Sequence record: MK327931.1
DNA: 64,000 bases
Reading direction: 5' to 3' (one strand)
Origin: Escherichia phage vB_EcoM_G17
The notes under the pieces were generated by a model. It was given only the letters and a program-made list of their open reading frames with translations. It searched no databases and was not told where the DNA came from. Made by a program: the position numbers and the translations under genes. Positions 1-64,000 of the stretch are shown one piece after another (positions within the stretch are counted from its first letter, which is position 1; every line of letters starts with the position of its first letter).

Positions 1-269
1 AATTCCAGTAAATTTACACCAATCCAATCAACATCACTATCAGTACTTAATTCCAATCGTAGCTTACCGCTATGACTAACAATATCGCGGAATTTGTATA
101 TTTTATTATCACGAACTATACACAAATCATGGTAATATTCATGTAATTCATCCAAAAACTTTATCCATACCGAACGATAGATTTCACTGTAGAGATATTC
201 TCCAGCATCAACCGTAGCGTATTGGATATACAAAAATTTGTATGTGAATTGTATATCATTTAATAACAT
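1..269 (-). CDS. hypothetical protein, Family C paralog (3-prime end truncated by window edge)
   Basis: ATG at 267-269 with AAGAGG-like SD; N-terminus MLLNDIQFTYKFLY shares the IQFTYKxLYDL motif with the next three genes. Confidence 0.5.
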   Translation of the reverse strand, partial: MLLNDIQFTYKFLYIQYATVDAGEYLYSEIYRSVWIKFLDELHEYYHDLCIVRDNKIYKFRDIVSHSGKLRLELSTDSDVDWIGVNLLE

Positions 270-279
270 ATGTAACCTC

Positions 280-591
280 TTATAAATTCACCAACTTCAC
301 AACTTTAATCTCGATAAATCCCCTATCGGTTATTTCCTGAAATTGAACATGGATTATACCATTATATGATTGCACACCATAGAAATCGAATTTATCATTT
401 CCATCGATAAAAGTACTGTAATTCTTTTTTATATATTCACCTACTGAATCTAAGTACTCAATATATAAATCAATAAATGGTTGTTCTTTGGATCGGTTAT
501 GTGAACCTATGTTGTTACTAACAAGGTATACATCATACAAATCATATAGGATCTTATAAGTGAATTGTATATCATTTAAATTTAATCCCAA
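280..591 (-). CDS. hypothetical protein, Family C paralog
   Basis: ORF track; motif DIQFTYKILYDL; tandem paralogs. Confidence 0.6.
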   Translation of the reverse strand: MGLNLNDIQFTYKILYDLYDVYLVSNNIGSHNRSKEQPFIDLYIEYLDSVGEYIKKNYSTFIDGNDKFDFYGVQSYNGIIHVQFQEITDRGFIEIKVVKLVNL

Positions 592-848
592 GGGAATATC
601 TCCAACGGAATACTGGTAAATCCAAAATCAGTGTAGTACTGAACCTCAACTTTACCATCACGTCTAATGATTATATCAGAAAATTCTGCATGGTCATCAC
701 CAATAATAACAGTACTGAATTTTTTTTTAATCTTACCACGAATCGTATGAATCATTTCAGTGCATGTGTCTTCTAGACTAGGGCTATCATTGTCGTGTGC
801 TAAATCTCGAATAATCTTGTATGTTAGTAGGAAATCTTTATAATTCAT
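582..848 (-). CDS. hypothetical protein, Family C paralog
   Basis: ORF track; motif FLLTYKIIRDL; start overlaps upstream stop. Confidence 0.6.
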   Translation of the reverse strand: MNYKDFLLTYKIIRDLAHDNDSPSLEDTCTEMIHTIRGKIKKKFSTVIIGDDHAEFSDIIIRRDGKVEVQYYTDFGFTSIPLEIFPWD

Positions 849-1120
849 ATGTCCACCAAATCTATACTATATCTTTCATTAGTATTACTATCTATAAATG
901 ATAGTACTAATTTACCACCAAAACTATTAACTTGTTCTATCTTCTGTTTTTTACCACGAATGATTATCTCACTATTAACAAAATATTCACGTATCATTAT
1001 TAAGTGATTAATCCAGATAGTATGAGTGAATGTGTTTTCTCGTATTGTATTGAGATATCTTCCATTGTGATGTAAATCAAACAAAACACTGTATGTATAT
1101 TGTAGAACTTTATAATTCAT
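845..1120 (-). CDS. hypothetical protein, Family C paralog
   Basis: ORF track; motif LQYTYSVLFDL; ATGA overlap with neighbour. Confidence 0.6.
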   Translation of the reverse strand: MNYKVLQYTYSVLFDLHHNGRYLNTIRENTFTHTIWINHLIMIREYFVNSEIIIRGKKQKIEQVNSFGGKLVLSFIDSNTNERYSIDLVDI

Positions 1121-1166
1121 ATATCCCCTTACAAAAATAGCCCGAACTTATGTCGGGCTATGTACA

Positions 1167-1853
1167 TTATTCATCGTCGTCATCGTCATCTAGATCGATA
1201 TAGATACTATCATCACCATCATCAAAGTACTCCACAATAACTCCTGGAATATTAAGGGCAGTAAACATTGCATCATATTTCTCATCAGATGGAATCAAAA
1301 CAAATTCGTCAATGTTTTGAACTTCTGGCATTTTATCTTCGGGGATACCCATATCAACAAGTGACTGAATAATCTTTTCTTTGAATTCTAAAAACTTCTC
1401 TTCAGATTCAAAATCCATAATAAGCTGTGCAACATATCCTTCATCGTTACCGAATGAAATTGACATTTGTGCATCAGTACCGACATAGCACCAAACACGT
1501 TTACCTGTGTGCTGCTCAATAAAGTTTTGAATCTGTAACACAATGTCATGGCGAGAACTGTTAGCAATGTTGTTAAGATTTTCTACACCAGCATTAATTC
1601 CAGTACTGTCATTTGTTTCTTCAAATTCACCATAATCACCCAATACATACTGTACACCTTCATGATGTAATGCATATGCATAGTCAAGGTCAGCGAGTGA
1701 ATCGCACTTTCCACGGATCGGACGTAGGGAAAGACCTAAGCGAAGATAACGGAAGTATGTATTAGTATTTGTATTTGTCAACGTAATGCTCCTTAACAAT
1801 ATAAAAGTAGTTGCTGTTATTGTCAAAAAAGATAACCATCCCTTTATAGACAT
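1167..1853 (-). CDS. hypothetical protein with poly-Asp C-terminal tail
   Basis: ORF track; C-terminus DLDDDDDDE; N-terminal part low complexity so true start may be internal. Confidence 0.5.
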   Translation of the reverse strand: MSIKGWLSFLTITATTFILLRSITLTNTNTNTYFRYLRLGLSLRPIRGKCDSLADLDYAYALHHEGVQYVLGDYGEFEETNDSTGINAGVENLNNIANSSRHDIVLQIQNFIEQHTGKRVWCYVGTDAQMSISFGNDEGYVAQLIMDFESEEKFLEFKEKIIQSLVDMGIPEDKMPEVQNIDEFVLIPSDEKYDAMFTALNIPGVIVEYFDDGDDSIYIDLDDDDDDE

Positions 1854-2061
1854 TTACACCAATTTTGATTTCACATATGTTATTTGATTTACTCGCTTCA
1901 GTCAATAACATTTTGTGCTCTTTACTGAAAGTGTGGAACAGTGGTTTGACATGCCACATTTCGATACCATCCAGTACTGAAAATTTTTCACTAAATTTAA
2001 TCATTGATTCTTGTAAAAAATATCCTGTAAGATTTATTTCATCACACATGCAAGTTTCCAA
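1762..2061 (-). CDS. hypothetical protein
   Basis: ORF track; overlaps 1167..1853 by about 90 nt, boundaries uncertain. Confidence 0.4.
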   Translation of the reverse strand: METCMCDEINLTGYFLQESMIKFSEKFSVLDGIEMWHVKPLFHTFSKEHKMLLTEASKSNNICEIKIGVNVYKGMVIFFDNNSNYFYIVKEHYVDKYKY

Positions 2062-2335
2062 GAAAATTAATCACATCTGCATGTGATAATGTATCATTAC
2101 CTTCTAGTACATTAATGATAAACGGCACTTGACGATATAGTTCAGCCAGGAATTGTACCTCATCAGATGTGTAAGAATATCCCATAGGAACAACCTGTGC
2201 AGTCCAGTTTCCTAGAGTTTTGTTAGCAATAATTGCAACTACAGTATTACCTTTGTATTCAACATGGATGGAACGAAATCCTGATTGCTCATTTTGATCC
2301 CAAAGTACTGGATTGGTTTTGAACAGTACTGACAT
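2042..2335 (-). CDS. hypothetical protein
   Basis: ORF track; tiled in leftward operon. Confidence 0.55.
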   Translation of the reverse strand: MSVLFKTNPVLWDQNEQSGFRSIHVEYKGNTVVAIIANKTLGNWTAQVVPMGYSYTSDEVQFLAELYRQVPFIINVLEGNDTLSHADVINFLGNLHV

Positions 2336-2337
2336 AA

Positions 2338-2871
2338 TTATTTCCTCATGTATTTTATAACGTCTTCAAATAATTGTATTTTTAAGTCCTCGTCATTTCC
2401 AGGTAAAAACTCACGAAAACTATCAAAATCTTCATTTTTTGCGAAGTTACGCATTTGTGTTGAGCTATATTGACTTACATTACGGTCAATACCTGCCTGA
2501 ATTGCTTTTATACTACAAAAATTATACAACTTACCATTGTACATGTCAAGAGTTTTTTGAAAAGAATCAATACGGTCAGAACCACAAATGAAAAGAACAT
2601 CTAAGTACTTTCCATCCAGTTCTCTCATTATATCAAATAGATTGTCTTCTGTGTAGATGTTCTCTTGCACTGAAGGATAGAATCCCTCTGTATAATACAT
2701 TTTTAGTTCAGGTGGGAGTGGGTTTTTTATATTGTCAGTACTGGTGCTTAGATATATTTTTAAATCAGCATTGTACTGTTCTTGTAATGTTTTGGCCTTT
2801 TCAAAAACTAAACCATGTCCACGATGTACAGGATTAATACGACCAAACGTTAATACACATGTTTCTTTCAT
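2338..2871 (-). CDS. nucleotidyltransferase, NMN/NaMN adenylyltransferase-like
   Basis: N-terminal FGRINPVHRGH (GxFxPxHxGH nucleotidyltransferase signature) and C-terminal YSSTQMR (ISSTxxR-type motif); 177 aa. Confidence 0.7.
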   Translation of the reverse strand: MKETCVLTFGRINPVHRGHGLVFEKAKTLQEQYNADLKIYLSTSTDNIKNPLPPELKMYYTEGFYPSVQENIYTEDNLFDIMRELDGKYLDVLFICGSDRIDSFQKTLDMYNGKLYNFCSIKAIQAGIDRNVSQYSSTQMRNFAKNEDFDSFREFLPGNDEDLKIQLFEDVIKYMRK

Positions 2872-3389
2872 AAATTCTTCATCACCAATCCGAGAGATTT
2901 AAGATAATTAATTTTAGCAGTGGTTAAGTACTTATCCAGTACTATCAGACACGAAGGAAATGGTGCTGAATCTGTTTTCTTATCGGGTTCTTCTGGTATA
3001 CCAAATCGTAATCTTCCCTTAATAAAACAAATACAATCACATATTTTAGCAGCATAATCCTGAAAAGCAATTGTGTCGGTTCTTGAGGGTACAAGAATAA
3101 CTACAGTTGCCCCGTTATTATATGCATCTACTGCTTTAGATAACCAAGTTTTCAAATCACTGTATGGTGGATTCAACCAAACTATATTATTTCCCCAATC
3201 CTGTGATAGTGAATCATCTTCTGGAGTGAAAAAATTATCACACAATGCAGTCTCATCAACACAAGCAGCATCAAGTGTAAATCCCCATAACTCATCCAAA
3301 TCTTCAAAGAAATCTTTGGGAGTTGTCCAGTTATCTTTTCCAGTACTGAAATGTACTGAATGTTTTTTCGAAGCATCCTTCTTCGACAT
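2868..3389 (-). CDS. DNA N6-adenine methyltransferase (phage Dam family)
   Basis: NPPY catalytic motif (WLNPPYSD); N-terminal WTTPKDFF..LDAAC region typical of phage N6A methylases; ATGA overlap with upstream gene. Confidence 0.75.
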   Translation of the reverse strand: MSKKDASKKHSVHFSTGKDNWTTPKDFFEDLDELWGFTLDAACVDETALCDNFFTPEDDSLSQDWGNNIVWLNPPYSDLKTWLSKAVDAYNNGATVVILVPSRTDTIAFQDYAAKICDCICFIKGRLRFGIPEEPDKKTDSAPFPSCLIVLDKYLTTAKINYLKSLGLVMKNL

Positions 3390-7674: not shown

Positions 7675-8148
7675 TTACTCCAAACTGGGATCTTTAACTG
7701 TTAGACTTTCTATGTCACTCGCATAAAGAACTACATTGGATTGATTTTCAGACACTTTAAAGTCGTGATAACTGTCTTTGACGATAAAATTATCTAATAT
7801 AAACCCTTTACTACAGCACATCATAATTTTATCATCTTTGATTGTGTAGGTGTTTTTCTTTTTACGTACTTCAGATTGTGGCGTAATACTATCGTTATTA
7901 CGAATAACACAATCAATATATTGTTCATTTGTACTCATAGGCATACCCATGATAAACGAGTTTTCAGTACTGATTGTTAGTATAAAAACGTTAGTATTTG
8001 GGTTGTGAAAAAAATCATGCATTGTCTTGCTACACAAAAATAGACATTGAATAATGTCCTTCACATTAAACATTATATCATGAACTTTGAATGCGTCCAA
8101 CTCTAAAATGTCATCAATTTTCCCATTTTCAACAGTTTTAATCTCCAT
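7675..8148 (-). CDS. hypothetical protein
   Basis: ORF track. Confidence 0.6.
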   Translation of the reverse strand: MEIKTVENGKIDDILELDAFKVHDIMFNVKDIIQCLFLCSKTMHDFFHNPNTNVFILTISTENSFIMGMPMSTNEQYIDCVIRNNDSITPQSEVRKKKNTYTIKDDKIMMCCSKGFILDNFIVKDSYHDFKVSENQSNVVLYASDIESLTVKDPSLE

Positions 8149-8190
8149 GATCTATCCTTGATCTTCTAATGCACTCCATGTGCGTTTTTA

Positions 8191-8688
8191 TTAAGTCACT
8201 GCATTATACTTCTCTATAGCATTAGTAATATTTAATATAGCTTCAGGAACCATTTCTTTATTGTATTCACGTTTTAAATTTTCCATTTTCTTAATAATTT
8301 CCAAGAAAAATGGCAAAATACATGAAGTATCTGTAAAATTACATGAGTACAAAGTACTCATTTGAAATAATTCACCTGAATCAATATTAAGAGATTTGTA
8401 TTCCTTAACAATGTTTTCGTTTGTATTGAAAATATGAAATACTGTTCCCATGTGATGAAGATATACACCATTCTCATTTTGAATATGGCATGGTGTGATT
8501 ACAATAGCAGTGTTGTCAATATTATTTACTATTGATAAACGTAGACTATGTAAACCTAAAATAACAGTACAATCACTTGAACTGCTTTGAATTTGGTCAG
8601 CAGTTTGTGTAACACTTGTAATATTTTCCCCATCAAGACAACTCTTGATTTTATCAAATGAATTTTTCATTGATTTAGTTAGATACAT
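8191..8688 (-). CDS. hypothetical protein, FamA paralog
   Basis: FamA core GELFQMSTLY. Confidence 0.65.
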   Translation of the reverse strand: MYLTKSMKNSFDKIKSCLDGENITSVTQTADQIQSSSSDCTVILGLHSLRLSIVNNIDNTAIVITPCHIQNENGVYLHHMGTVFHIFNTNENIVKEYKSLNIDSGELFQMSTLYSCNFTDTSCILPFFLEIIKKMENLKREYNKEMVPEAILNITNAIEKYNAVT

Positions 8689-54505: not shown

Positions 54506-54521
54506 TTTGATTCTCCTTGTA

Positions 54522-54586: not shown

Positions 54587-54589
54587 GTA

Positions 54590-54736: not shown

Positions 54737-54755
54737 TTCATATTCCTTAATTAGT

Positions 54756-55015: not shown

Positions 55016-55020
55016 ATTAA

Positions 55021-55293: not shown

Positions 55294-55344
55294 GGTATAA
55301 TCCCCAATATAAGCGGCCTGAATCGACCGCTAACGATGTTTTGA

Positions 55345-55614: not shown

Positions 55615-55694
55615 TATACGATCCTCTTAAGTTAATTTAATTTCTTTCCCCTATGCAGACACTATATCAAAGTATCTGCATAAAGTAAAGCTAA

Positions 55695-56018
55695 TTAAAG
55701 ATCTTTTTTGCGTTTAACATTCTGTACAGTACAATGCAACGGGATATTAAGATCATTGCACACACGAGTAAGGGAGGTTTCATCAGTATTAAGCCCGTCT
55801 ACTGATTCCTTTAAGAGAGATAACGCCGTTTGTTGATATGCATCTTCATAGCCATAAGTAAATGATTCAACCGCCAGATCATTCAAACCGTTATCCAGTT
55901 CAACGCTTACATGACAAGAATGATAAGTATTGCCATATGAATCAGTCCAACGTTTACCGTCAACATTGATTGCACGGATTGCAGCCAGGGAAACGGTGTT
56001 AATGATAGTTTTAGCCAT
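55695..56018 (-). CDS. hypothetical protein (paralog of 49577..49900)
   Basis: ORF track; AAGGAA SD; shared RWTDxxGNTYHSC motif. Confidence 0.7.
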   Translation of the reverse strand: MAKTIINTVSLAAIRAINVDGKRWTDSYGNTYHSCHVSVELDNGLNDLAVESFTYGYEDAYQQTALSLLKESVDGLNTDETSLTRVCNDLNIPLHCTVQNVKRKKDL

Positions 56019-56059
56019 TTTTGTATTCCTTAAATTAATATGTTGTCTTGATAAAATCT

Positions 56060-56088
56060 ATTATGCCAGTACTATCAAACTATGTCAA
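56060..56088 (-). promoter_or_regulatory. sigma70-like promoter (no GC hairpin)
   Basis: -35 TTGACA 56083-56088, 17-bp spacer, -10 CATAAT 56060-56065. Confidence 0.5.
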
Positions 56089-56107
56089 TAGTACTGTGAT
56101 AATATTT

Positions 56108-56251
56108 TTACTTACTTTTTGCTTTCTTTGCTGCTTCCACCTGGTCGGCCCATTCTTTACCCCATACTTGTAAATTATAATGGTACTGGCAAAGAGCAAC
56201 GCCCCGCTTTAAACCCGTAATAGATTTCTGACCACATTGACAAGTTTTCAT
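56108..56251 (-). CDS. hypothetical small Cys-containing protein (47 aa)
   Basis: Below ORF-track cutoff; MKTCQCGQ...CQYH; ATG with AAGGAA SD. Confidence 0.45.
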   Translation of the reverse strand: MKTCQCGQKSITGLKRGVALCQYHYNLQVWGKEWADQVEAAKKAKSK

Positions 56252-56268
56252 TTTAGTTTCCTTGTAGT

Positions 56269-56328
56269 GGGGAGAACCATTTCTCCCCTTGATGTAATGT
56301 ATTATACTTTATTCGATTTACTTTGCAA
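56269..56328 (-). promoter_or_regulatory. sigma70-like promoter + leader hairpin cassette
   Basis: -35 TTGCAA 56323-56328, 16-bp spacer, -10 TATAAT 56301-56306, hairpin GGGGAGAA..TTCTCCCC 56269-56288. Confidence 0.65.
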
Positions 56329-56337
56329 GTACTTTTT

Positions 56338-56565
56338 TTAATTTAATTCATCCAGGCAAAGGATACGCTCAACGCCCAAATCAGTTAAACTAATCGACGG
56401 CACTTGATAGGTTTCAATGTATGCTACACTTGCCCACTGACCGAACTCATTAACGGCCCAGGTATTCATTGCATTTTGCAATTCCGCACCTTCCTTGTTG
56501 GTAATTACAGCAACAGTAGAAGAATTACCAGTAGTACCAGATACGCGAGTGATTACGATAGCCAT
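56338..56565 (-). CDS. hypothetical protein
   Basis: ORF track. Confidence 0.65.
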   Translation of the reverse strand: MAIVITRVSGTTGNSSTVAVITNKEGAELQNAMNTWAVNEFGQWASVAYIETYQVPSISLTDLGVERILCLDELN

Positions 56566-56597
56566 TTTTTAATTCCTATTCAGTAGTTGATGTATGT

Positions 56598-56626
56598 ATT
56601 ATGTCAGTACTTAAAACTATTGTCAA
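56598..56626 (-). promoter_or_regulatory. sigma70-like promoter (no GC hairpin)
   Basis: -35 TTGACA 56621-56626, 17-bp spacer, -10 CATAAT 56598-56603. Confidence 0.5.
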
Positions 56627-56634
56627 ACTATTTT

Positions 56635-56787
56635 TTAAAGTTTATCAATGATTGATGCCGTTTCATTGATAGTCTTGCCGTGTTTTGCACACGCGATAAC
56701 TGCTTTAAATTCCTTTGATGACCAATCTTTCTTGCTGCATACTGACATTACTTGTAAAGTAAAACAATCCAGTTCATAAGTATTCAT
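56635..56787 (-). CDS. hypothetical small protein (50 aa)
   Basis: Below ORF-track cutoff; ATG with GAGGA SD. Confidence 0.45.
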   Translation of the reverse strand: MNTYELDCFTLQVMSVCSKKDWSSKEFKAVIACAKHGKTINETASIIDKL

Positions 56788-56832
56788 CTTTAAATCCTCA
56801 GTTAGTTAAGGTGTCTCGCCTTGATGTAATTA

Positions 56833-56860
56833 ATTATACGCTAATCTCTTAATCGTGCAA
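56833..56860 (-). promoter_or_regulatory. sigma70-like promoter (short leader hairpin)
   Basis: -35 TTGCAC 56855-56860, 16-bp spacer, -10 TATAAT 56833-56838. Confidence 0.5.
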
Positions 56861-57001
56861 GTACTTTTTATTACTTTTTGCAAAATACTTTAAACGCTCT
56901 CAATCGCATTCTAACGACCTTAACTCCACCAGCTAGGGCGATGTATCAGATAATCAGTTTAATGCGTTAGGCGGTGCTAGTGGACTGGAATACTATAGAC
57001 A

Positions 57002-57030
57002 CAAAAAAGCCCACTGTTTAAGGTGGGCTA
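57002..57030 (-). terminator. rho-independent terminator
   Basis: Hairpin AGCCCAC-CTTAAACA-GTGGGCT 57008-57029 followed on minus strand by U6; after stop of 57051..57533. Confidence 0.7.
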
Positions 57031-57050
57031 GTGATTCAGTACTTTAATTT

Positions 57051-57533
57051 TTATGCTTCAACTTTGCGATGAGCTTCGATCCATTCCTCGCGAGTCATAC
57101 CGCTTTCTTTGATAGCGTCCAGTACTACCGCAATGCAGTTACCGCGTACAGGAATCAAATGTTCTTCCCCGTTATCAAGTACTACCGCTACACGTTCCTG
57201 AATCCATTTTTTAGGCTTAGATTCCGGCTTATCTTCACCATACTTAACCGCCAGGGCTTTATGTGCCATTTCCACAACCACTTCCAGATCCAATCCAGAC
57301 ACTGCCGCCTGAATACTTTCAATTGTTGCTTGTAGTTCTGCTTCACGGGCTTTTTTCTGTTCTTCCAGTTCTGCTACCTTTTTGGCTTGCAGTTCTTTCG
57401 CAGTACTGTACGCAATGTTAAAATTGTTGCGTACCGCTTTCATGGTATCGCTATCCAGTTCAGCCAGGATTTCTGCCGCTACGTTAGTTTCATTTGCTAC
57501 CAGTGCTTTGATGAATGATTTTACATTAGCCAT
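57051..57533 (-). CDS. hypothetical protein (coiled-coil rich)
   Basis: ORF-track start is TTG; trimmed to ATG (MANVKSF) with GAGGA SD; Lys/Glu/Ala-rich helical repeats. Confidence 0.65.
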   Translation of the reverse strand: MANVKSFIKALVANETNVAAEILAELDSDTMKAVRNNFNIAYSTAKELQAKKVAELEEQKKAREAELQATIESIQAAVSGLDLEVVVEMAHKALAVKYGEDKPESKPKKWIQERVAVVLDNGEEHLIPVRGNCIAVVLDAIKESGMTREEWIEAHRKVEA

Positions 57534-57656
57534 TTTATAAATCCTCAATTAAAGTTTAGTTTACGTTAGATAGTGTATCAAAGTTTTCTCGACGTGTCCA
57601 GTTTTTCGTTCGACTTACTGGCGGTCTACTTAGTGCTCCCCGTCTTGATGTAATAC
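57534..57656 (-). other. conserved structured leader element, copy 3 (5-prime UTR of 57051..57533)
   Basis: About 120-nt leader beginning ACATCAAGACGGGGAGC, homologous to 50596-50680 and 60584-60672. Confidence 0.4.
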
Positions 57657-57684
57657 ATTCTACGCTTTTCTGTGGTAATGTCAA
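57657..57684 (-). promoter_or_regulatory. sigma70-like promoter
   Basis: -35 TTGACA 57679-57684, 16-bp spacer, -10 TAGAAT 57657-57662. Confidence 0.55.
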
Positions 57685-57737
57685 CTACTTTTTTAAAACT
57701 ATTTTTAAAGTATCTCAGTACTACGATACTACAAAAA

Positions 57738-57766
57738 CAAAAAAGCCCACTGTTTAAGGTGGGCTA
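57738..57766 (-). terminator. rho-independent terminator (duplicate of 57002-57030)
   Basis: Identical hairpin AGCCCACTGTTTAAGGTGGGCT 57744-57765 with A/U runs; after stop of 57783..58082. Confidence 0.7.
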
Positions 57767-57782
57767 GTGATTCAGTACTAGA

Positions 57783-58082
57783 TTATAAACAGTTAATTAC
57801 TCCGGTGTGCGTTACTTTCTCAGTATCCATAACCGTGACCGATCCACGCTTAGTACTGGCATCATAATAAATTGTGGTGCTACCGTTTTCGTCTTCTTCA
57901 TGGAACGGGCCGTTTTTAAATGCTTCCGGCTGGATCTCTAAATCCTTTAATACAATCTCGCCAGTTCTTTCATCGGTCATTGCAACAGTGCACTGAATGA
58001 ATTTTTCATTACTTACATCTAATGACGCATTAACAGCGAAAGAGGAAACAGATAAAGCCAGGGCGATGATTGCAATTTTCAT
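57783..58082 (-). CDS. hypothetical secreted or lipoprotein-like protein
   Basis: N-terminal signal-peptide-like MKIAIIALALSVSSFAVNAS; AAGGA SD. Confidence 0.65.
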   Translation of the reverse strand: MKIAIIALALSVSSFAVNASLDVSNEKFIQCTVAMTDERTGEIVLKDLEIQPEAFKNGPFHEEDENGSTTIYYDASTKRGSVTVMDTEKVTHTGVINCL

Positions 58083-58102
58083 TTGATTATCCTTAGTTAC
58101 CA

Positions 58103-58161
58103 GGGGGAACCGCTCCCCCTTGCTATGTAAAATATTATACAGTACTAAAAACTAATTGCAA
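58103..58161 (-). promoter_or_regulatory. sigma70-like promoter + leader hairpin cassette
   Basis: -35 TTGCAA 58156-58161, 16-bp spacer, -10 TATAAT 58134-58139, hairpin GGGGGAACCGCTCCCCC 58103-58119. Confidence 0.6.
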
Positions 58162-58166
58162 GTACT

Positions 58167-58403
58167 TTATGATTTTTTATAAAACATTTCGGCAGTGATA
58201 TTTTTACCCGTTGGCTGTACTTTATCCAGAATTTTTTGATGCCCTGGCCGTCCAAATGAATATGATCCGTAAACCGTAAACCAGTAGTTACCCTCAGTGT
58301 TTACATGTACAGCACAATAGGGAACGCCCCGCGATTCATCACTAGTAAAGTGTGCTACCGTTCCCGTTACATTCGAAGTCGTTGATTTGATTTGTTCAAG
58401 CAT
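58167..58403 (-). CDS. hypothetical protein
   Basis: ORF track; AAGGAA SD. Confidence 0.65.
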   Translation of the reverse strand: MLEQIKSTTSNVTGTVAHFTSDESRGVPYCAVHVNTEGNYWFTVYGSYSFGRPGHQKILDKVQPTGKNITAEMFYKKS

Positions 58404-58423
58404 TTTCTTATTCCTTAGTTACC

Positions 58424-58477
58424 AGGGGAACCGCTCCCCTATGCAAAACATTATACGCGTTTAAAAACTAATAGCAA
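58424..58477 (-). promoter_or_regulatory. sigma70-like promoter + leader hairpin cassette
   Basis: -35 TTGCTA 58472-58477, 16-bp spacer, -10 TATAAT 58450-58455, hairpin AGGGGAACCGCTCCCCT 58424-58440. Confidence 0.55.
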
Positions 58478-58510
58478 GTATTTTAATAAAAAGTATTTGG
58501 AAAATAATTG

Positions 58511-58539
58511 TTGACAAGTGCATCCAGTACTGGCATAAT
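58511..58539 (+). promoter_or_regulatory. plus-strand sigma70-like promoter
   Basis: -35 TTGACA 58511-58516, 17-bp spacer with AGTACT, -10 CATAAT 58534-58539; opposite orientation to flanking genes. Confidence 0.5.
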
Positions 58540-58545
58540 TACTAC

Positions 58546-58653
58546 ATCAAGACGAAACAGTCACTAACCCACCGGGTGCATAGATCCGTCTATTAAATGA
58601 TTCAGTACTGAAAAAGTAACGGGGAGTTATTATCTCCCCGCGTTGTTATTTTG
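58546..58653 (+). ncRNA. candidate small RNA (promoter-to-terminator unit, about 105 nt)
   Basis: Starts about 7 nt after -10, contains motif AACCCACCGGGTGCATAG, ends at hairpin CGGGGAG-TTATTAT-CTCCCCG 58620-58640 plus U-rich tail; no ORF. Confidence 0.4.
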
Positions 58654-58867
58654 TAAGGTATAAACAGAAGTCACCTTTATTTGCTACGCCGCCAGTGTAA
58701 CGCGATGAATAGTTAGAAATATCTTGTACTTCTGCTATTACCAGTGTATCATCATTCATTTCGTCGCAGAAGCAAACGGCTGGATCTTTTACGCCGATAT
58801 TGTCGGCATGTTCCCGCATAGATTTAACCAGTGCTTCCAGTTGAGAAAGAGTAGTGATATTAGCCAT
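58646..58867 (-). CDS. hypothetical protein
   Basis: ORF track 58646..58897 trimmed to ATG (MANITTLSQ) with GAGGA SD. Confidence 0.6.
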   Translation of the reverse strand: MANITTLSQLEALVKSMREHADNIGVKDPAVCFCDEMNDDTLVIAEVQDISNYSSRYTGGVANKGDFCLYLTK

Positions 58868-58885
58868 TGTATTTTCCTCATTACC

Positions 58886-58945
58886 AGGGAGAACCATTTC
58901 TCCCCTCTATGTAAACTATTATACAGTACTGAAAACTAATTGCAA
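58886..58945 (-). promoter_or_regulatory. sigma70-like promoter + leader hairpin cassette
   Basis: -35 TTGCAA 58940-58945, 16-bp spacer, -10 TATAAT 58918-58923, hairpin about 58886-58906. Confidence 0.6.
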
Positions 58946-58953
58946 GTACTTTT

Positions 58954-59157
58954 TTAATTTAATTGCTTTAAAACATACTCAAAGACACCACGCACATCAT
59001 TGATCATCGCCTGGCGGTTAGCAGGTAACGCATCAGGATCGCCACTATCCCAGGCATTGATAAAACTCCCCAAATCATGATAGATTTTATTCTGTAAGCC
59101 GATTAACTGTAATTCTTTTTCTTCAAGCTCTTTGATGCGGTCGATTAAATCACTCAT
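58954..59157 (-). CDS. hypothetical protein
   Basis: ORF track 58954..59193 trimmed to ATG (MSDLIDRIK) with TGAGGATTATCTA SD. Confidence 0.55.
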   Translation of the reverse strand: MSDLIDRIKELEEKELQLIGLQNKIYHDLGSFINAWDSGDPDALPANRQAMINDVRGVFEYVLKQLN

Positions 59158-59174
59158 TAGATAATCCTCAGTAC

Positions 59175-59459
59175 TTAACTGTAAGATCCGCAACGGTCGC
59201 AGTAGTGCCCGTCCTCGTCATCGTCAACGAATTGACCGACGAAATGATCTACTTTCGCTTTCAGGTTATTATAATCGTTTTCTACTTCATTTAAACGCTT
59301 CTGGTAGTATTCCAGTGCTTTAAGATATGCCGCATCAGCAGTTTTCTCCTGCATAGCTAAATTCATGCCACGCGTTTCATCGTACAGCCAAAAACCATCG
59401 GTGCACTGGCTAATAGATAATGACTTGCTTAGTACTGTATAGTTAATTACTTTACCCAT
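59175..59459 (-). CDS. hypothetical protein
   Basis: ORF track; same SD sequence as downstream gene; C-terminal CDRCG. Confidence 0.65.
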   Translation of the reverse strand: MGKVINYTVLSKSLSISQCTDGFWLYDETRGMNLAMQEKTADAAYLKALEYYQKRLNEVENDYNNLKAKVDHFVGQFVDDDEDGHYCDRCGSYS

Positions 59460-59476
59460 TAGATAATCCTCAGTAA

Positions 59477-59537
59477 AGGCGGGAACTATTCCCCGCCTCG
59501 ATATAAAGTATTATACGTTAATCTAACTACAATGCAA
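59477..59537 (-). promoter_or_regulatory. sigma70-like promoter + leader hairpin cassette
   Basis: -35 TTGCAT 59532-59537, 16-bp spacer, -10 TATAAT 59510-59515, hairpin AGGCGGGAACTATTCCCCGCCT 59477-59498. Confidence 0.6.
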
Positions 59538-59551
59538 GTACTTTTTAAATT

Positions 59552-59818
59552 TTATAATCCTTTTACTGCATCAGGTGCGACTACTCCATCAATGTATTGA
59601 ACATCGTTTTCAACTTCACGGGCGGCATCATTCAGCAGATCAAAATTAAATTCCATTTCTTCCAGATCATCGAAATCAGGCTCATAACCATTAATTGTTG
59701 AATAAGTCCAAGTACCTTTTTCATAAGTTACGACACTTACATCAGGGAAGAAATCTTGCACATGATCCATCGCATCCCGAACCAATTGATGTGCAGTTGT
59801 GATATTTAAAGTTTTCAT
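59552..59818 (-). CDS. hypothetical protein
   Basis: ORF track. Confidence 0.65.
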   Translation of the reverse strand: MKTLNITTAHQLVRDAMDHVQDFFPDVSVVTYEKGTWTYSTINGYEPDFDDLEEMEFNFDLLNDAAREVENDVQYIDGVVAPDAVKGL

Positions 59819-59839
59819 TTTGTTGCCCTTTTAGTGTGA

Positions 59840-59899
59840 GCGGGGAACCACTCCCCGCCTCGATGTAAAGTATTATACGCTTTTAAACTTAGTTTGCAA
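59840..59899 (-). promoter_or_regulatory. sigma70-like promoter + leader hairpin cassette
   Basis: -35 TTGCAA 59894-59899, 16-bp spacer, -10 TATAAT 59872-59877, hairpin GCGGGGAACCACTCCCCGC 59840-59858. Confidence 0.6.
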
Positions 59900-59911
59900 G
59901 TACTTTTTAAA

Positions 59912-60523
59912 TTAATATGCGATTGATTCTACTACGTCATCAATAACATTGAATTGATATTCGTTACCCTCAATCAGTGCCGTAATGTTTTCAGTAGTGA
60001 ATTGATCCTCATATGCATTCTCTAAATCACGGTACAACTTGCGGGATAATTCACGAATAGTTTCAGTGAGTAGTTCCTCAAGCTCATTAACTAACGTTTC
60101 TTGTTTTGCGGTTAAATCAGTGTAAGCCGATTCAATGTACCCGCTTACAGTATTCTCATGCGAGTAGTGGGAGTGAGAACGCTTTACACTCATCGCCAAA
60201 TCATCTTCATTCAGCAGGTGACGGATTGAGCGATACTTAGTTAATGCTCTTACCTTGCGTAAAAACTTCACTGCGTCAACGTGGTCAGTACTGATTGATG
60301 CACCGTCACCCTGGGACCAAAAACCACTGAATTGTATTTCAGCTTCATTAATGCCATATTCCGGTAGTACTGTTTCTTTATAGTATTCAATTTCACTTTC
60401 AGAAAAATAATTGTCGTTTGAGTTTTTTTCACGTTCCCGAACCAGTTCGATAGCTGACGTTTTTTGTTCTGCGTTCAATTCAGAAAAATCCATAACGAAA
60501 GTAGTAGTAGTGATAGTTTTCAT
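59912..60523 (-). CDS. hypothetical protein
   Basis: ORF track; 203 aa; contains SGFWSQGDGAS; GAGGG SD. Confidence 0.7.
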   Translation of the reverse strand: MKTITTTTFVMDFSELNAEQKTSAIELVREREKNSNDNYFSESEIEYYKETVLPEYGINEAEIQFSGFWSQGDGASISTDHVDAVKFLRKVRALTKYRSIRHLLNEDDLAMSVKRSHSHYSHENTVSGYIESAYTDLTAKQETLVNELEELLTETIRELSRKLYRDLENAYEDQFTTENITALIEGNEYQFNVIDDVVESIAY

Positions 60524-60555
60524 TTTGTAACCCTCATTCAGTAGTTGATGTAAGT

Positions 60556-60583
60556 ATTATACGCTTTTAAAAACATTTGTCAA
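60556..60583 (-). promoter_or_regulatory. sigma70-like promoter
   Basis: -35 TTGACA 60578-60583, 16-bp spacer, -10 TATAAT 60556-60561. Confidence 0.55.
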
Positions 60584-60672
60584 ACTATTTTATCAGGGGA
60601 GTTTTTCGTGTGCCTTACTCCTGGGCTACTTAACGGGAAGTTACTTATTTCGTTCCCCGTCCTGATGTAAAA
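60584..60672 (-). other. conserved structured leader element, copy 2
   Basis: Homologous to 50596-50680, differing at a handful of positions; no ORF. Confidence 0.4.
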
Positions 60673-60673
60673 C

Positions 60674-60701
60674 ATTATACGCCTTTAAACATAGTTTGCA
60701 A
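60674..60701 (-). promoter_or_regulatory. sigma70-like promoter
   Basis: -35 TTGCAA 60696-60701, 16-bp spacer, -10 TATAAT 60674-60679. Confidence 0.5.
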
Positions 60702-60746
60702 GTACTTTTTAAAAATAGTTTTCAGTACTGAATATTTAAAAAAGTA

Positions 60747-60775
60747 TTGACAGCATTATCAAGTACTGGCATAAT
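60747..60775 (+). promoter_or_regulatory. plus-strand sigma70-like promoter
   Basis: -35 TTGACA 60747-60752, 17-bp spacer, -10 CATAAT 60770-60775; transcript would begin with AGCTAACCCACCGGGTGCAC motif. Confidence 0.45.
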
Positions 60776-60890
60776 ATACCCCATGACAACAGCTAACCCA
60801 CCGGGTGCACAATTGTAACTATACTAAACTACTTTTTCTATAGATACACTCCCGCACCCTATGGGCTACGGCTTATCTGCCAATGAATAC

Positions 60891-60919
60891 ATTATGCCAG
60901 TACTGACAAAATAAGTCAA
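60891..60919 (-). promoter_or_regulatory. minus-strand promoter convergent with plus promoter at 60747-60775
   Basis: -35 TTGACT 60914-60919, 17-bp spacer, -10 CATAAT 60891-60896. Confidence 0.4.
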
Positions 60920-60949
60920 TACCGGCAATTGTAAAGATTTGTAAACTGC

Positions 60950-61180
60950 TTATACTGCAATCGCGTCCAGGCTATAATAATAATAAGTGCCGTATTGGTG
61001 TACTTTATTACCTTTTATTTCAGTACTGAATGAATCCGAACGGTTTGCATATGATGTTAATTTAAAGTACTTTGATTTGCTGATACGTTGCCATACACCG
61101 CAGATCCGCTGTAAGTAAGTAGTTTTATTCGTGGTAGTATCTTTTACAGTTTTAACTTCAGTCATATACATATTAGTCAT
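60950..61180 (-). CDS. hypothetical protein
   Basis: ORF track; GGAG SD. Confidence 0.6.
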   Translation of the reverse strand: MTNMYMTEVKTVKDTTTNKTTYLQRICGVWQRISKSKYFKLTSYANRSDSFSTEIKGNKVHQYGTYYYYSLDAIAV

Positions 61181-61201
61181 TTTTATTACTCCAGGTTATA
61201 G

Positions 61202-61260
61202 GCGGGAAGAGTTCCCGCTCTCGATGTAAAACATTATACGCCATTAAACATAGTTTGCAA
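61202..61260 (-). promoter_or_regulatory. sigma70-like promoter + leader hairpin cassette
   Basis: -35 TTGCAA 61255-61260, 16-bp spacer, -10 TATAAT 61233-61238, hairpin GCGGGAA-GAG-TTCCCGC 61202-61218. Confidence 0.6.
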
Positions 61261-61267
61261 GTACTTT

Positions 61268-61534
61268 TTATTCAAGTACTGCAATCTTTTTAGTACGGTA
61301 CACGGTCACGCGGTTGCCCTTTCGGTCGAGCTTTATTTCTACCACTCGACGCGATACACTATCAGGACTTTTCAACGCCGCTAACCAGTACTGTAATGAT
61401 CTGGCGGTACTACGCTTTATAATGGCCCAACGTTTACCACGTTCCGATTGTACGCCCATATCTTTAAACGTTGCCCCGTCCTGGCGTGCGGCGATCCGAG
61501 CTTGTTCACGCGTCGCAAAATACTTAATATTCAT
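61268..61534 (-). CDS. hypothetical protein (paralog of 49086..49490)
   Basis: ORF track 61268..61570 trimmed to ATG (MNIKYFATREQAR) with AAGGG SD. Confidence 0.6.
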   Translation of the reverse strand: MNIKYFATREQARIAARQDGATFKDMGVQSERGKRWAIIKRSTARSLQYWLAALKSPDSVSRRVVEIKLDRKGNRVTVYRTKKIAVLE

Positions 61535-61575
61535 GCTGTTGCCCTTATCGTTGGTGTATGAATAAAACACTATTA

Positions 61576-61606
61576 TAAAGTACTATCGCAAAAAATGATA
61601 GTACTT
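61576..61606. promoter_or_regulatory. 11-bp inverted repeat AAAGTACTATC / GATAGTACTTT (candidate operator or attenuator)
   Basis: Perfect 11-bp arms separated by 9 bp, each containing AGTACT; sits where a -35 box would be expected upstream of 61268..61534. Confidence 0.35.
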
Positions 61607-61619
61607 TAAATAAATTCTA

Positions 61620-61859
61620 TTACATTCCAACCATTGCAGCACGGATCGCAGTAGTGCTATATTTGAATCCGTCCGGCGTTTTATCTTGTCCAGTCTGTTC
61701 TAAAAATAACATCATATGACGGGCCGCATCATTACGATTAGTATTGGCGGCAATAAAGTCCTGGGCCAACCGGTATAATGATTCATCGTTATTAATCCAA
61801 AGGCTTACATTCCAATGAGTTTTGTTTTTGTGACCTAAGAACATTTTTGATTTAGCCAT
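61620..61859 (-). CDS. hypothetical protein
   Basis: ORF track 61620..61898 trimmed to ATG (MAKSKMF) with AAGAGGA SD. Confidence 0.6.
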   Translation of the reverse strand: MAKSKMFLGHKNKTHWNVSLWINNDESLYRLAQDFIAANTNRNDAARHMMLFLEQTGQDKTPDGFKYSTTAIRAAMVGM

Positions 61860-61880
61860 TTTTTTAATCCTCTTATATAG

Positions 61881-61938
61881 TGGGGAACTATTCCCCACCT
61901 GATGTAAAACATTATACGCTTTTAAACATAGTTTGCAA
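61881..61938 (-). promoter_or_regulatory. sigma70-like promoter + leader hairpin cassette
   Basis: -35 TTGCAA 61933-61938, 16-bp spacer, -10 TATAAT 61911-61916, hairpin TGGGGAA-CTA-TTCCCCA 61881-61897. Confidence 0.6.
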
Positions 61939-61952
61939 GTACTTTATTAAAC

Positions 61953-62315
61953 TTATTCGTAAATTTTGCCACTGTCAGCCCATACCAGGAAACGAGGCAT
62001 ATTATCCCATGCATCTTGTTTTAAATTTAAACCGTGTAATACTTCTGTACTTTCCATTCCTGGTACTGGTTTACTATACACCGCGAAATTTTCGCCCATA
62101 TACTGATAAACCATCGTCAAATCACTGGCGATCATCTTATGGATCATCGCATCAAGCATCACGGTAGCGGCGTATTGTTCACGCTTAAGCGGCAACATTG
62201 TAATAAGTTCCCGATAAGCTGAAATGTGAATTTTTACCGTTTCAGCCGGAAGACCTTTCATCTCTTCACGGAAGTTGACCAGGTTAGAAATAATTTTATT
62301 GATTTGGGTCGCCAT
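61953..62315 (-). CDS. hypothetical protein
   Basis: ORF track 61953..62372 trimmed to ATG (MATQINKII). Confidence 0.6.
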   Translation of the reverse strand: MATQINKIISNLVNFREEMKGLPAETVKIHISAYRELITMLPLKREQYAATVMLDAMIHKMIASDLTMVYQYMGENFAVYSKPVPGMESTEVLHGLNLKQDAWDNMPRFLVWADSGKIYE

Positions 62316-62339
62316 CGTATTAATCTCTTTTAAAGTGTA

Positions 62340-62398
62340 GCGGGAAGTGTTCCCGCTCTCGATGTAAAACATTATACGCCTTTAAACATAGTTTGCAA
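62340..62398 (-). promoter_or_regulatory. sigma70-like promoter + leader hairpin cassette (first of the leftward small-gene cluster)
   Basis: -35 TTGCAA 62393-62398, 16-bp spacer, -10 TATAAT 62371-62376, hairpin GCGGGAA-GTG-TTCCCGC 62340-62357. Confidence 0.6.
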
Positions 62399-62634
62399 GT
62401 ACTTTCTACATGTACTTTTAAAATAGTTTTCTTTCTATATAGGGGAACTATCATTCAGTACTATTATTCAGTACTGAATCAACCAAATCACTACTACACC
62501 CCATAAAACGGCCTCAGACGCATTCTAACGCATTAATACACCTAAGCTATACATTTGCACCATTCCAATCATTCCAGGGCTTTACGGGCCGTTTAAACGC
62601 GTTAAATTATTTTCAATTATTTTGTTTTTAGCTA

Positions 62635-62662
62635 TTGACTCAGTACAGAAAAAGCGTATAAT
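62635..62662 (+). promoter_or_regulatory. plus-strand sigma70-like promoter
   Basis: -35 TTGACT 62635-62640, 16-bp spacer, -10 TATAAT 62657-62662. Confidence 0.45.
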
Positions 62663-62850
62663 TACTACATAGACGCGAGAAAGCGGAAACCCCAGAGGGT
62701 GCGGAATTACGCCCAAAATTCAAGATATAAAAAAAGGATACACTCCCGCACCCTAGCAGGTAAACGCACTTTCTCAGTACTGAAATATAGTACCATAGTC
62801 CGGCCCAGGATAGCAAGCAAATTAATTAAAACTTTTTTGCTTCCAGGGTA

Positions 62851-62878
62851 TTGCTTTATTTTTTCAGTACTGTATAAT
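62851..62878 (+). promoter_or_regulatory. plus-strand sigma70-like promoter
   Basis: -35 TTGCTT 62851-62856, 16-bp spacer with CAGTACTG, -10 TATAAT 62873-62878; followed by CATCAAG..AGCCCACCGGGTGCATAG. Confidence 0.45.
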
Positions 62879-63099
62879 AGTTCCATCAAGTCGAGAAAGA
62901 CTCAAGCCCACCGGGTGCATAGTTACGCCCAAAATTCAGTACTGAAAAAATTTTTAAAAATATCCGTCCAGGCCGTTGACATTGCCCCCAGTTTATAAGA
63001 TAATGATTCCAGATTCAGAAAAATCTAACTCCAGATACTGCGGGGAAACTATCCCCACGCGGTAGGGGAACTATTGGAAAAAACAAAATAAAATTTTGA

Positions 63100-63230
63100 T
63101 TTAGCCGTCTATACTTCCAGACGTGTAACCATCTAGCCGTTTAGCCGTCCAAACGTCTAGCCATCCAGAAATCTAGCCGTCTAGATGGATAGCCATCTTT
63201 ACTTCCAGACTTCTGGAGGGCTAGACATAT
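63100..63230. repeat. iteron-like cluster of short direct repeats (TCTAGCC / TAGCCGTC / TAGCCATC)
   Basis: At least 7 copies of CTAGCC-type units within about 130 bp of ORF-free DNA. Confidence 0.5.
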
Positions 63231-63607
63231 CTACGCCCAAAATCCATCCAGGGTAACTACACCCAAAATCCGTCAGTACTATACCATAGATCTATCTTTT
63301 GAAAGGGAGTATTCAGTACTGCCATCATAGCCCTCACTATGTTACCCTAGGAGGATGAAGACCATCATGTAGTACTGAATACTGTTAGAGGGAATCCACC
63401 AGCACAAGCTGGTGGTATAATGCTTTAGATTAAAATCAGTACTGACACCATTCTGTTAATATCAGTACTGTTATTACGATTTTCATATGAGGTTCAAAAA
63501 GATGTACCACCACAGGAGGAACTATCTTTTCTGTACTGTCTCACGACAGGAGGTAGAGTAAATGAATTGTTCGCAGCAACTCATCACCCCTTGAAGCTAT
63601 GTAGAAC

Positions 63608-63635
63608 ATTATACAGTACTGAATCATAATGTCAA
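63608..63635 (-). promoter_or_regulatory. sigma70-like promoter in right-hand control region
   Basis: -35 TTGACA 63630-63635, 16-bp spacer, -10 TATAAT 63608-63613; no obvious downstream ORF. Confidence 0.4.
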
Positions 63636-64000
63636 TAGCTTTCTTTCATTATTCAGTACTGATATTCTTGAGAACTACCCGACTACAAACATCATTATAT
63701 CCCACAAATCATAAACGTCCCAACGTAAATTTCAACTTTCGAAGATCCAACTTTTATTTCATAGGTACTCCAAAATTTTTAGGATCGAGATTTAGGATGG
63801 AGTACTAACCAACTTTTTGCTGGAGCCTCAAGGGGTAATTGAATTTTACCCCGAAGGGTAAAAGGGTAATTGTAATTAAGGTGAAAGTAATAATTCAGTA
63901 CTAATCATTGCGTGATTACTTTTGATTACATTTGATGTAATTTGCAAAATGGAAAAGGAGCTTGGAAACTACAAAGTACGGCAGACTTCCTCTGCCTACT

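Follow-up and report, generated by a model that had tools for sequence, protein, structure and literature searches.

The palindromic hexamer AGTACT is over-represented in the genome of an Escherichia jumbo phage and of its relatives

We analysed a stretch of 64,000 nucleotides from Escherichia phage vB_EcoM_G17 (record MK327931.1), referred to below as the window, in which the palindromic hexamer AGTACT occurs 251 times, or 3.9 times per kb, and ranks first among all 4096 hexamers by count as well as by z-score. This is a stronger excess than that described in an earlier reading of the same DNA from its letters alone (the sequence-only reading), which had placed AGTACT at several copies per kb by eye and had taken it for a functional site such as a protein-binding target or a modification or packaging signal. 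That the enrichment marks a functional DNA site, and not chance, is strongly supported by the occurrence of copies in all reading frames, by their conservation and spacing, and by their placement in promoters. Among the functions suggested, that of a packaging signal is unlikely for a word with some 900 dispersed and evenly placed copies in the genome; binding target and modification target both remain candidates. With its rank, its retention across related genera and its place on early promoters, AGTACT is almost certainly recognised by some protein. As a tentative explanation, we favour a clade-specific protein with a Type II-like mode of recognition, possibly acting together with a methyltransferase, for which AGTACT would serve both as a mark of the phage's own DNA and as an operator of its early promoters.

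Enrichment, independence and conservation of AGTACT sites

The expected number of AGTACT copies in the window is 21.4 from base composition, and 17.0, 44.5 and 96.4 under Markov models of order 1, 2 and 3. The fourth-order expectation of 208 is circular, since that model is built on AGTAC and GTACT, two pentamers whose counts the motif itself raises; under every model that is free of this contamination, the observed count lies more than about 2-fold above expectation. By comparison, the runner-up among the 6-bp palindromes of the window, ATGCAT, is enriched just 2.4-fold. For whole-genome counts we used Escherichia phage Sharanji (OR545507.1), a jumbo myovirus of the genus Asteriusvirus with a genome of 350,079 bp and with 121Q, PBECO4 and phAPEC6 as relatives, to which the window is 100% identical (Megablast). 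Window positions 1-27632 correspond to Sharanji 322448-350079, and window position 27556 onward to Sharanji position 1 onward. The 77 bases at window 27556-27632 are repeated at 27633-27709, and the ends of the deposited record overlap by the same 77 bp; since the two record ends share this sequence, the window is joined across an assembly artefact and contains no biological junction at this point. The complete genome carries 902 copies of AGTACT against 119 expected. Each 5-kb bin holds at least 5 copies, compared to 1.7 expected, except for three bins within the initial 15 kb of the record that overlap two site-free blocks (deserts 1 and 2, Table 1), and the density reaches its maximum of about 6 per kb at record positions 15.8-36.5 kb.

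The word extends beyond the hexamer. Its preferred form is (T)(T)C-AGTACT-G(A)(A), with the 12-bp palindrome TTCAGTACTGAA as the optimum, and the enrichment grows along this series: CAGTACTG is present in 199 genome copies against 3.4 expected (approximately 58-fold), TCAGTACTGA in 47 against 0.37, and TTCAGTACTGAA in 14 against 0.04 (approximately 350-fold). The flanks are symmetric, with C at position -1 and G at position +6 in 46% of the sites each, the reverse bases being the rarest at 8%, and with TT and AA favoured further out; the C and G preference holds for coding and intergenic sites alike. The core itself is strict, as for the palindromes recognised by Type II enzymes. Among 224 genomic occurrences of CAG-NN-CTG, 199 are CAGTACTG, no other central dinucleotide is found more than 9 times, and cores with a single mismatch within the same flanks reach at most 22 copies.

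We considered whether a few amplified sequences could generate such numbers. When the copies in the window were clustered by at least 60% identity over the 40 nt around each of them, the 251 copies fell into 184 flank clusters, 168 of which are singletons, while the multi-copy clusters correspond to promoter families. Information in the flanks ends approximately 3 bp to either side of the hexamer, which is not the pattern of a dispersed repeat. The sequence-only reading had remarked that the Ser-Thr pair in the core of a paralogous protein family, FamA, is usually encoded AGT-ACT, and this is indeed the case for the S-T of (F/Y)FQxSTV(Y/W) in about 11 paralogues, a minor share of the copies. 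Inflation by repeats or paralogues is thus ruled out by the 184 flank clusters and by the roughly 11 sites that the FamA core explains.

Approximately two thirds of the AGTACT sites are intragenic, and here the codons can be used as an internal control. Synonymous codons were shuffled inside each of 164 annotated genes of the window region (300 shuffles), which gave 52 ± 6 AGTACT copies and a highest value of 71, against 176 observed, a 3.4-fold excess. The excess is found in all three frames, with 69 copies read as Ser-Thr, 45 as x-Tyr-x and 62 as x-Val-Leu, compared to 20, 16 and 16 in the shuffles. Together with the Markov-0 to Markov-3 expectations, these within-gene shuffles rule out an artefact of composition or codon usage. 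AGTACT also shapes the protein sequences themselves. In the proteins of the window region we count 135 Ser-Thr against 64 Thr-Ser dipeptides (71 expected), and 163 Val-Leu against 91 Leu-Val (97 expected).

Comparison between genomes shows that the sites are retained. In PBECO4, which is 97.9% identical to Sharanji, 154 of 161 sites are intact versus 89.8% of all hexamers (binomial p = 0.006), with seven losses and nine gains between the two phages. The enrichment extends to three other genera, represented by phages of other enterobacterial hosts and each sampled at 50 kb: 119 copies against 17 expected in Klebsiella phage RaK2 (7-fold), 253 against 17 in Cronobacter phage GAP32 (15-fold) and 232 against 16.5 in Yersinia phage fHe-Yen9-03 (14-fold). 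Between genera, in orthologues with 48-59% amino-acid identity, 27-44% of the sites occupy the identical aligned position, where chance would provide fewer than 0.4 sites. Where the context of two or three residues is identical between genera, AGTACT is present in both genomes in 7/8, 13/15 and 35/41 cases (85-90%), whereas control windows with conserved amino acids keep their nucleotide identity in 27-39%; for a Ser-Thr pair conserved between genera, both genomes have AGTACT in 30 of 37 cases. Judged from these alignments, AGTACT is kept by selection across four related phage genera, at approximately one copy per 150-600 bp. Outside this clade no enrichment was seen, neither in the outgroup jumbo phages, which are more distant and infect other hosts, PA5oct (0 copies, 6.7 expected), Atu_ph07 (1, 6.7 expected) and XacN1 (0, 12.5 expected) nor in the unrelated coliphages T5 (3, 6.6 expected), T4 (7, 6.7 expected) and rV5 (2, 5.9 expected). 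A single 50-kb sample of E. coli K-12, small as it is, contains 3 copies against 11.6 expected, and the density in the phage is approximately 40-fold above it.

The position distribution, which the sequence-only reading had singled out for checking, is more regular than random. The coefficient of variation of the gaps between neighbouring sites is 0.76-0.87 in ten out of ten regions from four genomes, compared to 0.99 in simulated random placements; the longest gaps are shorter than the simulated ones, and empty 1-kb bins are fewer.

AGTACT in the terminal repeat and its promoters

The density of AGTACT rises to 6.4 per kb in the direct terminal repeat (DTR), and to 9.4 per kb in the intergenic DNA of this zone. 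We placed its boundary from the DTR annotated in phage vB_Ec-M-J and from the 20,668-bp DTR reported for Sharanji (PMC11895373). On the minus strand of this zone (window 43.4-64k), 40 sequences match the sigma-70 pattern in at least 10 of 12 bases and were taken as promoters; the promoters of the terminal repeat include 11 with a perfect TTGACA-N16/17-TATAAT and about 13 with TTGCAA-N16-TATAAT. AGTACT had been described as lying in promoter spacers before the -10 box and directly abutting -35 boxes, and this placement is borne out, with 29 of the 40 matches carrying a site between -41 and -13. Twelve promoters are of the AGTACTTGCAA or AGTACTATTGACA kind, AGTACTTGCAA being a site that shares the first T of the -35 box. 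Four others show the arrangement TTGACAGTACT, in which the site overlaps the last A of the same box. In 18 promoters AGTACT ends 1-2 nt upstream of the -10 box, as AGTACTGTATAAT or AGTACTGGCATAAT, the TG of the latter doubling as an extended -10 element. Both the -35 and the -10 position are filled in five promoters, with the two sites 20-21 bp apart. In the example given in Table 1, AGTACTTGCAATTAGTTTTCAGTACTGTATAAT, one AGTACT overlaps the first T of the -35 box, and a single nucleotide separates the other from the -10 box downstream. The inverted repeat at 61576-61606, noted earlier for AGTACT in both of its arms, indeed holds such a pair, 21 bp apart, in AAGTACTATCATTTTTTGCGATAGTACTT followed by TATAAT.

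The same promoter offsets are enriched in GAP32 and fHe-Yen9-03. Summed over four genomes, the spacing of 20-21 bp forms a peak of 37 pairs against approximately 8 expected, to which Sharanji, GAP32 and fHe-Yen9-03 contribute and RaK2 does not. Beyond this promoter pair we found no periodicity or helical-phase arrays in AGTACT spacing, and the sites showed no association with either the middle-type motif TGAAACG or the late-type motif TATAAATA. Sites that overlap or abut the regions contacted by RNA polymerase in 29 of 40 promoters, conserved in two further genera, are what one would expect of an operator. As a sigma-70 promoter element proper the word fits poorly, for although fixed promoter positions exist, most sites lie within genes. 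These intragenic sites show no positional link to gene starts and have a -10-like hexamer downstream of them in only 10 of 166 cases, which rules out cryptic intragenic promoters and leaves about one seventh of all sites to promoters.

Table 1 Features of the window that bear on the distribution of AGTACT
Feature	Position	Strand	Remarks
Predicted DNA N6-adenine methyltransferase, Dam family (PF05869)	2868..3389	-	Pfam E = 7e-32
FamA paralogous gene block, tightly packed	7675..27510	-	3.6 AGTACT per kb, all within coding sequence
AGTACT desert 1	27931..35646		0 sites in 7.7 kb; about 20 expected at the genome mean, 2.6 by chance
About 30 old paralogous genes in tandem, each encoding roughly 70 amino acids	36175-43265		With desert 2; 27 match phrog_4148; median identity 35%
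AGTACT desert 2	38092..43463		0 sites in 5.4 kb; within the paralogous gene array
Direct-terminal-repeat early-gene zone	43400..64000	-	Some 50 small genes, mostly with a sigma-70-type promoter each; approximately 132 AGTACT
Example of a two-site promoter, AGTACTTGCAATTAGTTTTCAGTACTGTATAAT	58918..58950	-	Sites 20 bp apart
Further two-site promoters of the same design	54788-54820, 54559-54591, 58134-58166, 56060-56095	-	
Inverted repeat	61576..61606	-	AGTACT at 61579 and 61600, flanking the spacer of the promoter for gene 61268-61534
Non-coding end of the terminal repeat	62373..64000		15 AGTACT, largely TTCAGTACTGAA-type
16-bp iteron-like array TCCAGACGTCTAGCCA, about 5 copies	63116-63197		In the 1.6-kb non-coding end

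The two deserts, which are absent from the first account of this DNA, together cover 13 kb. Comparable site-free stretches lie directly inside the terminal repeat of vB_Ec-M-J. The block around desert 1 (27701-35700) has DNA matches in Asteriusvirus records only, and is the most divergent block among them, with 75-82% identity in ph0011, WPEC3 and TH47 versus 92-95% for the adjoining terminal repeat. Desert 2 falls in the tandem array of small paralogous genes, a compact block immediately internal to the terminal-repeat boundary in which no promoters lie between the genes.

Several other features of the terminal repeat deserve mention. At 23 places on the minus strand of window 44214-62366 (for instance 46608, 47102 and 53529), early leaders start with TACAT(C/A) and contain a conserved G/C hairpin (GGGGAGAATAGTTCTCCCC-like), downstream of the promoters and preceding the ribosome-binding site. 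Early genes on the same strand are separated at four places (44790-44817, 47542-47569, 50811-50838 and 54099-54126) by a recurring hairpin of 28 nt, AAAGGGATTGACTCCGGTCAGTCCCTTT; as it is followed by GCTATTATAT and no T-run, it is not a typical terminator. Among the early genes of 43400-64000, the weak or partial Pfam matches include a protein-kinase-like protein (47581-48165), a ParE-like toxin domain and a zinc finger of the DksA/TraR type, which hints at functions in host takeover. The iteron-like array is possibly a terminus, packaging or origin element.

Candidate readers of AGTACT

A perfect palindrome with symmetric flanks implies recognition of the DNA duplex by a protein that is itself symmetric, and even spacing, cost to the proteins and conservation site by site all suggest that the word works by covering the phage DNA. 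Since the core is Type II-like, the 12-bp extension and the embedding in promoters are operator-like, and the distribution bears these signs of coverage, we favour a clade-specific, phage-encoded reader, although we put it forward with reservations. From the distribution of the sites we infer not only that such a reader exists, but also its origin and mode of action. It would most likely be encoded by the enterobacterial RaK2-like jumbo phages themselves, and would bind double-stranded DNA as a symmetric dimer, the contiguous and strict palindrome pointing to the Type II kind of specificity. With AGTACT as a self-mark, a phage factor could act selectively, and with full coverage, on phage DNA without any bulk hypermodification of its bases. 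Bound at the promoters of the terminal repeat, such a protein would occlude the contacts of RNA polymerase, as a methyl group might also do, and thereby turn the early genes off together. The approximately 900 ScaI-type sites in virion DNA are probably protected, most simply by methylation, because the genome otherwise purges restriction sites.

A number of observations weigh against this reading. Some 900 sites are far more than the target set of any known regulator, the invariant central TA is unusual for operators of helix-turn-helix proteins, and methylation of AGTACT is itself a matter of inference. The promoter positions could in part reflect how well the hexamer fits into very compact intergenic DNA, or the ancestry of duplicated promoter cassettes, which form clusters of 13-29 copies. 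The two AGTACT-free blocks show that, with 13 kb devoid of sites, full coverage is not obligatory everywhere. In addition, a scan of 266 Sharanji proteins with Pfam gave no recognisable DNA-binding family, be it helix-turn-helix, ribbon-helix-helix or TetR, and no restriction-enzyme family. This set was composed of 114 proteins of the window, which were also compared to PHROGs, and of 152 others: 142 genome proteins, the neighbourhood of the sigma factor and annotated nuclease-like genes. The relevant matches among the scanned proteins are a Dam-family methyltransferase and a C5 methylase only, most genes being ORFans; neither a ScaI-like endonuclease, nor an AGTACT-specific methylase, nor an HU-like gene was found among them, and a weak match to 'DAM-like-phage1' (E = 0.0036) was not assignable to a gene.

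One could argue that no separate reader is needed, and that AGTACT is purely a modification target: a phage methyltransferase, of the Dam family or another, would methylate it, and the methyl mark itself would act, by protecting against restriction of the ScaI/Eco255I type and by tuning promoters epigenetically, for instance by telling injected from newly replicated DNA. We consider this unlikely, but it has substantial points in its favour. The strict, contiguous core is typical of Type II enzymes and is the very 6-bp palindrome of ScaI and Eco255I (AGT^ACT), and the under-representation of the word in outgroup phages and in the host sample fits a real restriction target. An orphan methyltransferase is also present. 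The Dam-family methyltransferase proposed at 2868..3389 is identified as such by its PF05869 match; it is the only candidate modification enzyme within the window, and it is syntenic in PBECO4, GAP32 and fHe-Yen9-03. A C5 methylase is encoded elsewhere in the Sharanji genome (Pfam). In RaK2, the DNA has been reported to be methylated and resistant to many enzymes, with cytosine methylation at a CpG motif (PMC3622015). It is at this CpG motif that the RaK2 C5 methylase appears to be aimed, and AGTACT contains no CpG. The Dam-family gene, in turn, has a 44%-identical homologue in the Xanthomonas jumbo phage XbC2, so that its presence does not track the enrichment, a point that also counts against our favoured reading, if with the qualification that avoidance of AGTACT was counted in XacN1, a relative of XbC2, and not in XbC2 itself. 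Protection provides tolerance, whereas the observed pattern is one of 8- to 350-fold enrichment, conservation of individual positions, even spacing and flank preferences that reach 12 bp, in a word of a class that phages normally deplete; a reader would still be needed.

The background against which AGTACT is tolerated is one of severe palindrome loss. Phages are known to deplete palindromes that are restriction targets, a contrast that the sequence-only reading had drawn and that proves to be sharper than first stated: the 350-kb genome does not contain a single GCGC (292 expected), nor do the 50-kb samples of RaK2, GAP32 and fHe-Yen9-03, and 23-29 of the 64 possible palindromes of six bases are missing entirely. 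With other restriction palindromes purged to this extent, some 900 unprotected ScaI-type sites would be anomalous and are hard to call neutral. GCGC occurs 342 times per 50 kb in the host sample, and its avoidance is not seen in the outgroup phages, T4 or T5. GAGGAG/CTCCTC, GGTCTC/GAGACC and CAGCTC/GAGCTG are absent as well. These missing words could reflect an extreme form of restriction avoidance, or the need of the phage to escape a nuclease of its own that is directed against the host DNA. In T5 (positions 1-20000) it is the GCGC-centred palindromes that are most enriched, with 62 copies of GCGC against 26.5 expected; the nick sites of T5 carry GCGC, and T5 may be another, less pronounced case of a phage in which the target word of its own enzyme is enriched.

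Another explanation of the coverage signs would be a Chi-like attenuator, that is, a word read on unwound DNA by a translocating helicase-nuclease of the phage, or by a modified one of the host, such that DNA without AGTACT, including the host chromosome, is destroyed while DNA with it tames the enzyme, the palindrome serving from either end and on either strand. The even spacing with its curtailed gaps, the density peaks in the terminal repeats, which are the DNA ends, and the approximately 40-fold contrast with the host sample would all be accounted for, and RecD-like, SbcCD-like and Cas4-like nucleases are annotated in the genome. The phage uses a device of this kind already, since the genuine E. 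coli Chi is present in 29 copies against about 1.5 expected (GCTGGTGG 10 times and CCACCAGC 19 times, about 1 expected each), an enrichment which suggests that DNA ends are protected from RecBCD; nine of the copies are found within the terminal repeat, all in the same orientation (window 44.7-63.4 kb, record 17140-35841). Such words are recognised by their asymmetry and orientation bias, however, and no known Chi-type sequence is palindromic, whereas AGTACT is a perfect palindrome for which orientation is impossible. The 13 kb of deserts would moreover stand unprotected, and the fixed positions on -35 and -10 boxes in three genera would be left unexplained. We therefore regard a Chi-like role as quite improbable.

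The reader could also be a host protein of the Enterobacterales, which the phage titrates or exploits, for example to block cell division. The nearest candidate is SlmA, a nucleoid-occlusion factor; the enrichment is confined to phages of Enterobacterales, and the taxa that carry SlmA match the host range of the phage clade. The 12-bp SlmA-binding sequence GTGAGTACTCAC has the same palindromic layout as the phage word and an identical central AGTACT (PMC3020112), and positions 2, 4, 5 and 6 of the half-site agree. SlmA requires G1, T2, A4, G5 and a purine at position 3 (PMC3020112), and the phage sites provide A4, G5 and T6 but neither the essential G1 nor the purine, favouring C at position 3 (46% versus 8% for G). 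The prefix GT is found 84 times against 101 expected, GT.AGTACT.AC fits two sites only, and the full SlmA consensus is absent. E. coli has approximately 50 SlmA sites, compared to 902 copies of AGTACT in the phage. Finally, a host factor that is useful to any coliphage should have left its trace in T4, T5 and rV5, which show no enrichment. A role of SlmA or of another host protein is, for these reasons, very improbable.

It is also conceivable that the enrichment has no function and results from a non-adaptive drive, in which biased mismatch repair of the Vsr-like kind, or a mutational bias, converts near-cognate words to AGTACT. Such a process would not be confined to one frame or to genes, conservation could be mimicked by it, and the nine gains and seven losses between Sharanji and PBECO4 are balanced. 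It should deplete the words that are one mutation away, yet these neighbours stand at 0.95-2.1 times expectation. Nor does it account for two blocks of the same composition that are entirely free of sites, for a spacing more regular than random, or for the precise promoter positions. Undepleted neighbours, deserts and even spacing together speak against Vsr-like repair, and we see very little room for a drive of this type. That AGTACT is an ordinary by-product of a promoter element, a repeated cassette, a paralogous protein motif or a codon or oligonucleotide bias is barely credible and is refuted as a sufficient explanation. Promoter families do form clusters of 13-29 copies, about 11 copies stem from the FamA Ser-Thr core, and the TG at the end of the site is usable as an extended -10 element. 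Against this stand 184 flank clusters independent of one another, with 21 copies expected, intragenic sites unlinked to gene starts with 10 of 166 before a -10-like hexamer, 3.4 times the synonymous-shuffle expectation, and enrichment in structural-gene regions and in other genera.

Comparison with known systems and implications

The logic of the proposed reader has a precedent in TF1 of phage SPO1, a DNA-binding protein which the phage encodes, which is abundant and which prefers phage to host DNA by virtue of hydroxymethyluracil, whose preferred sites overlap early promoters in the SPO1 terminal redundancy and which helps to shut off early transcription. The difference is that the discrimination would here be written in the sequence. 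The stoperators of cluster A mycobacteriophages (L5) are likewise a repressor-binding word that is scattered over the genome as well as present at the early promoter. They are 13-bp, asymmetric and oriented with transcription, number approximately 20-30 and are mostly intergenic, in contrast to the palindromic AGTACT with its roughly 900 copies, some two thirds of which lie inside genes in all frames. Closest in their statistical properties are Chi, DNA uptake sequences and KOPS, which are similarly over-represented and intragenic in all frames, shape codons and amino acids and have a density-dependent function. These are asymmetric words of cellular chromosomes that are read on one strand, unlike AGTACT, which is a perfect palindrome, viral, and built into promoters. 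We know of no phage in which a restriction-type palindrome is the commonest hexamer, conserved site by site and forcing amino acids. Full-text searches for AGTACT or CAGTACTG in the literature on RaK2-like and jumbo phages, and for methylome reports of AGTACT, returned nothing relevant, and the genome papers on Sharanji (PMC11895373), RaK2 (PMC3622015) and CBB describe promoters and methyltransferases but not AGTACT.

One could speculate further that sequence-encoded self-marking of viral DNA constitutes a new principle, with AGTACT as a 'barcode' by which a phage-encoded reader tells phage from host. We regard this broader proposition as rather doubtful at present. The barcode would be the functional counterpart of hydroxymethylcytosine in T4 or hydroxymethyluracil in SPO1, and would coordinate the shut-off of early promoters with protection or organisation of the entire genome. 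The missing GCGC, so common in the host sample, might then be its mirror image, and the two words together would make up a two-sided, sequence-based code for self and non-self.

If AGTACT is indeed a self-mark read by a phage protein, this would explain how a 350-kb phage with ordinary bases discriminates its own DNA from that of the host, and how approximately 50 early promoters are shut off simultaneously. The word would also provide an experimental handle on a large clade in which some 80% of the genes are ORFans, and it could offer engineering a compact and portable pair of tag and reader.

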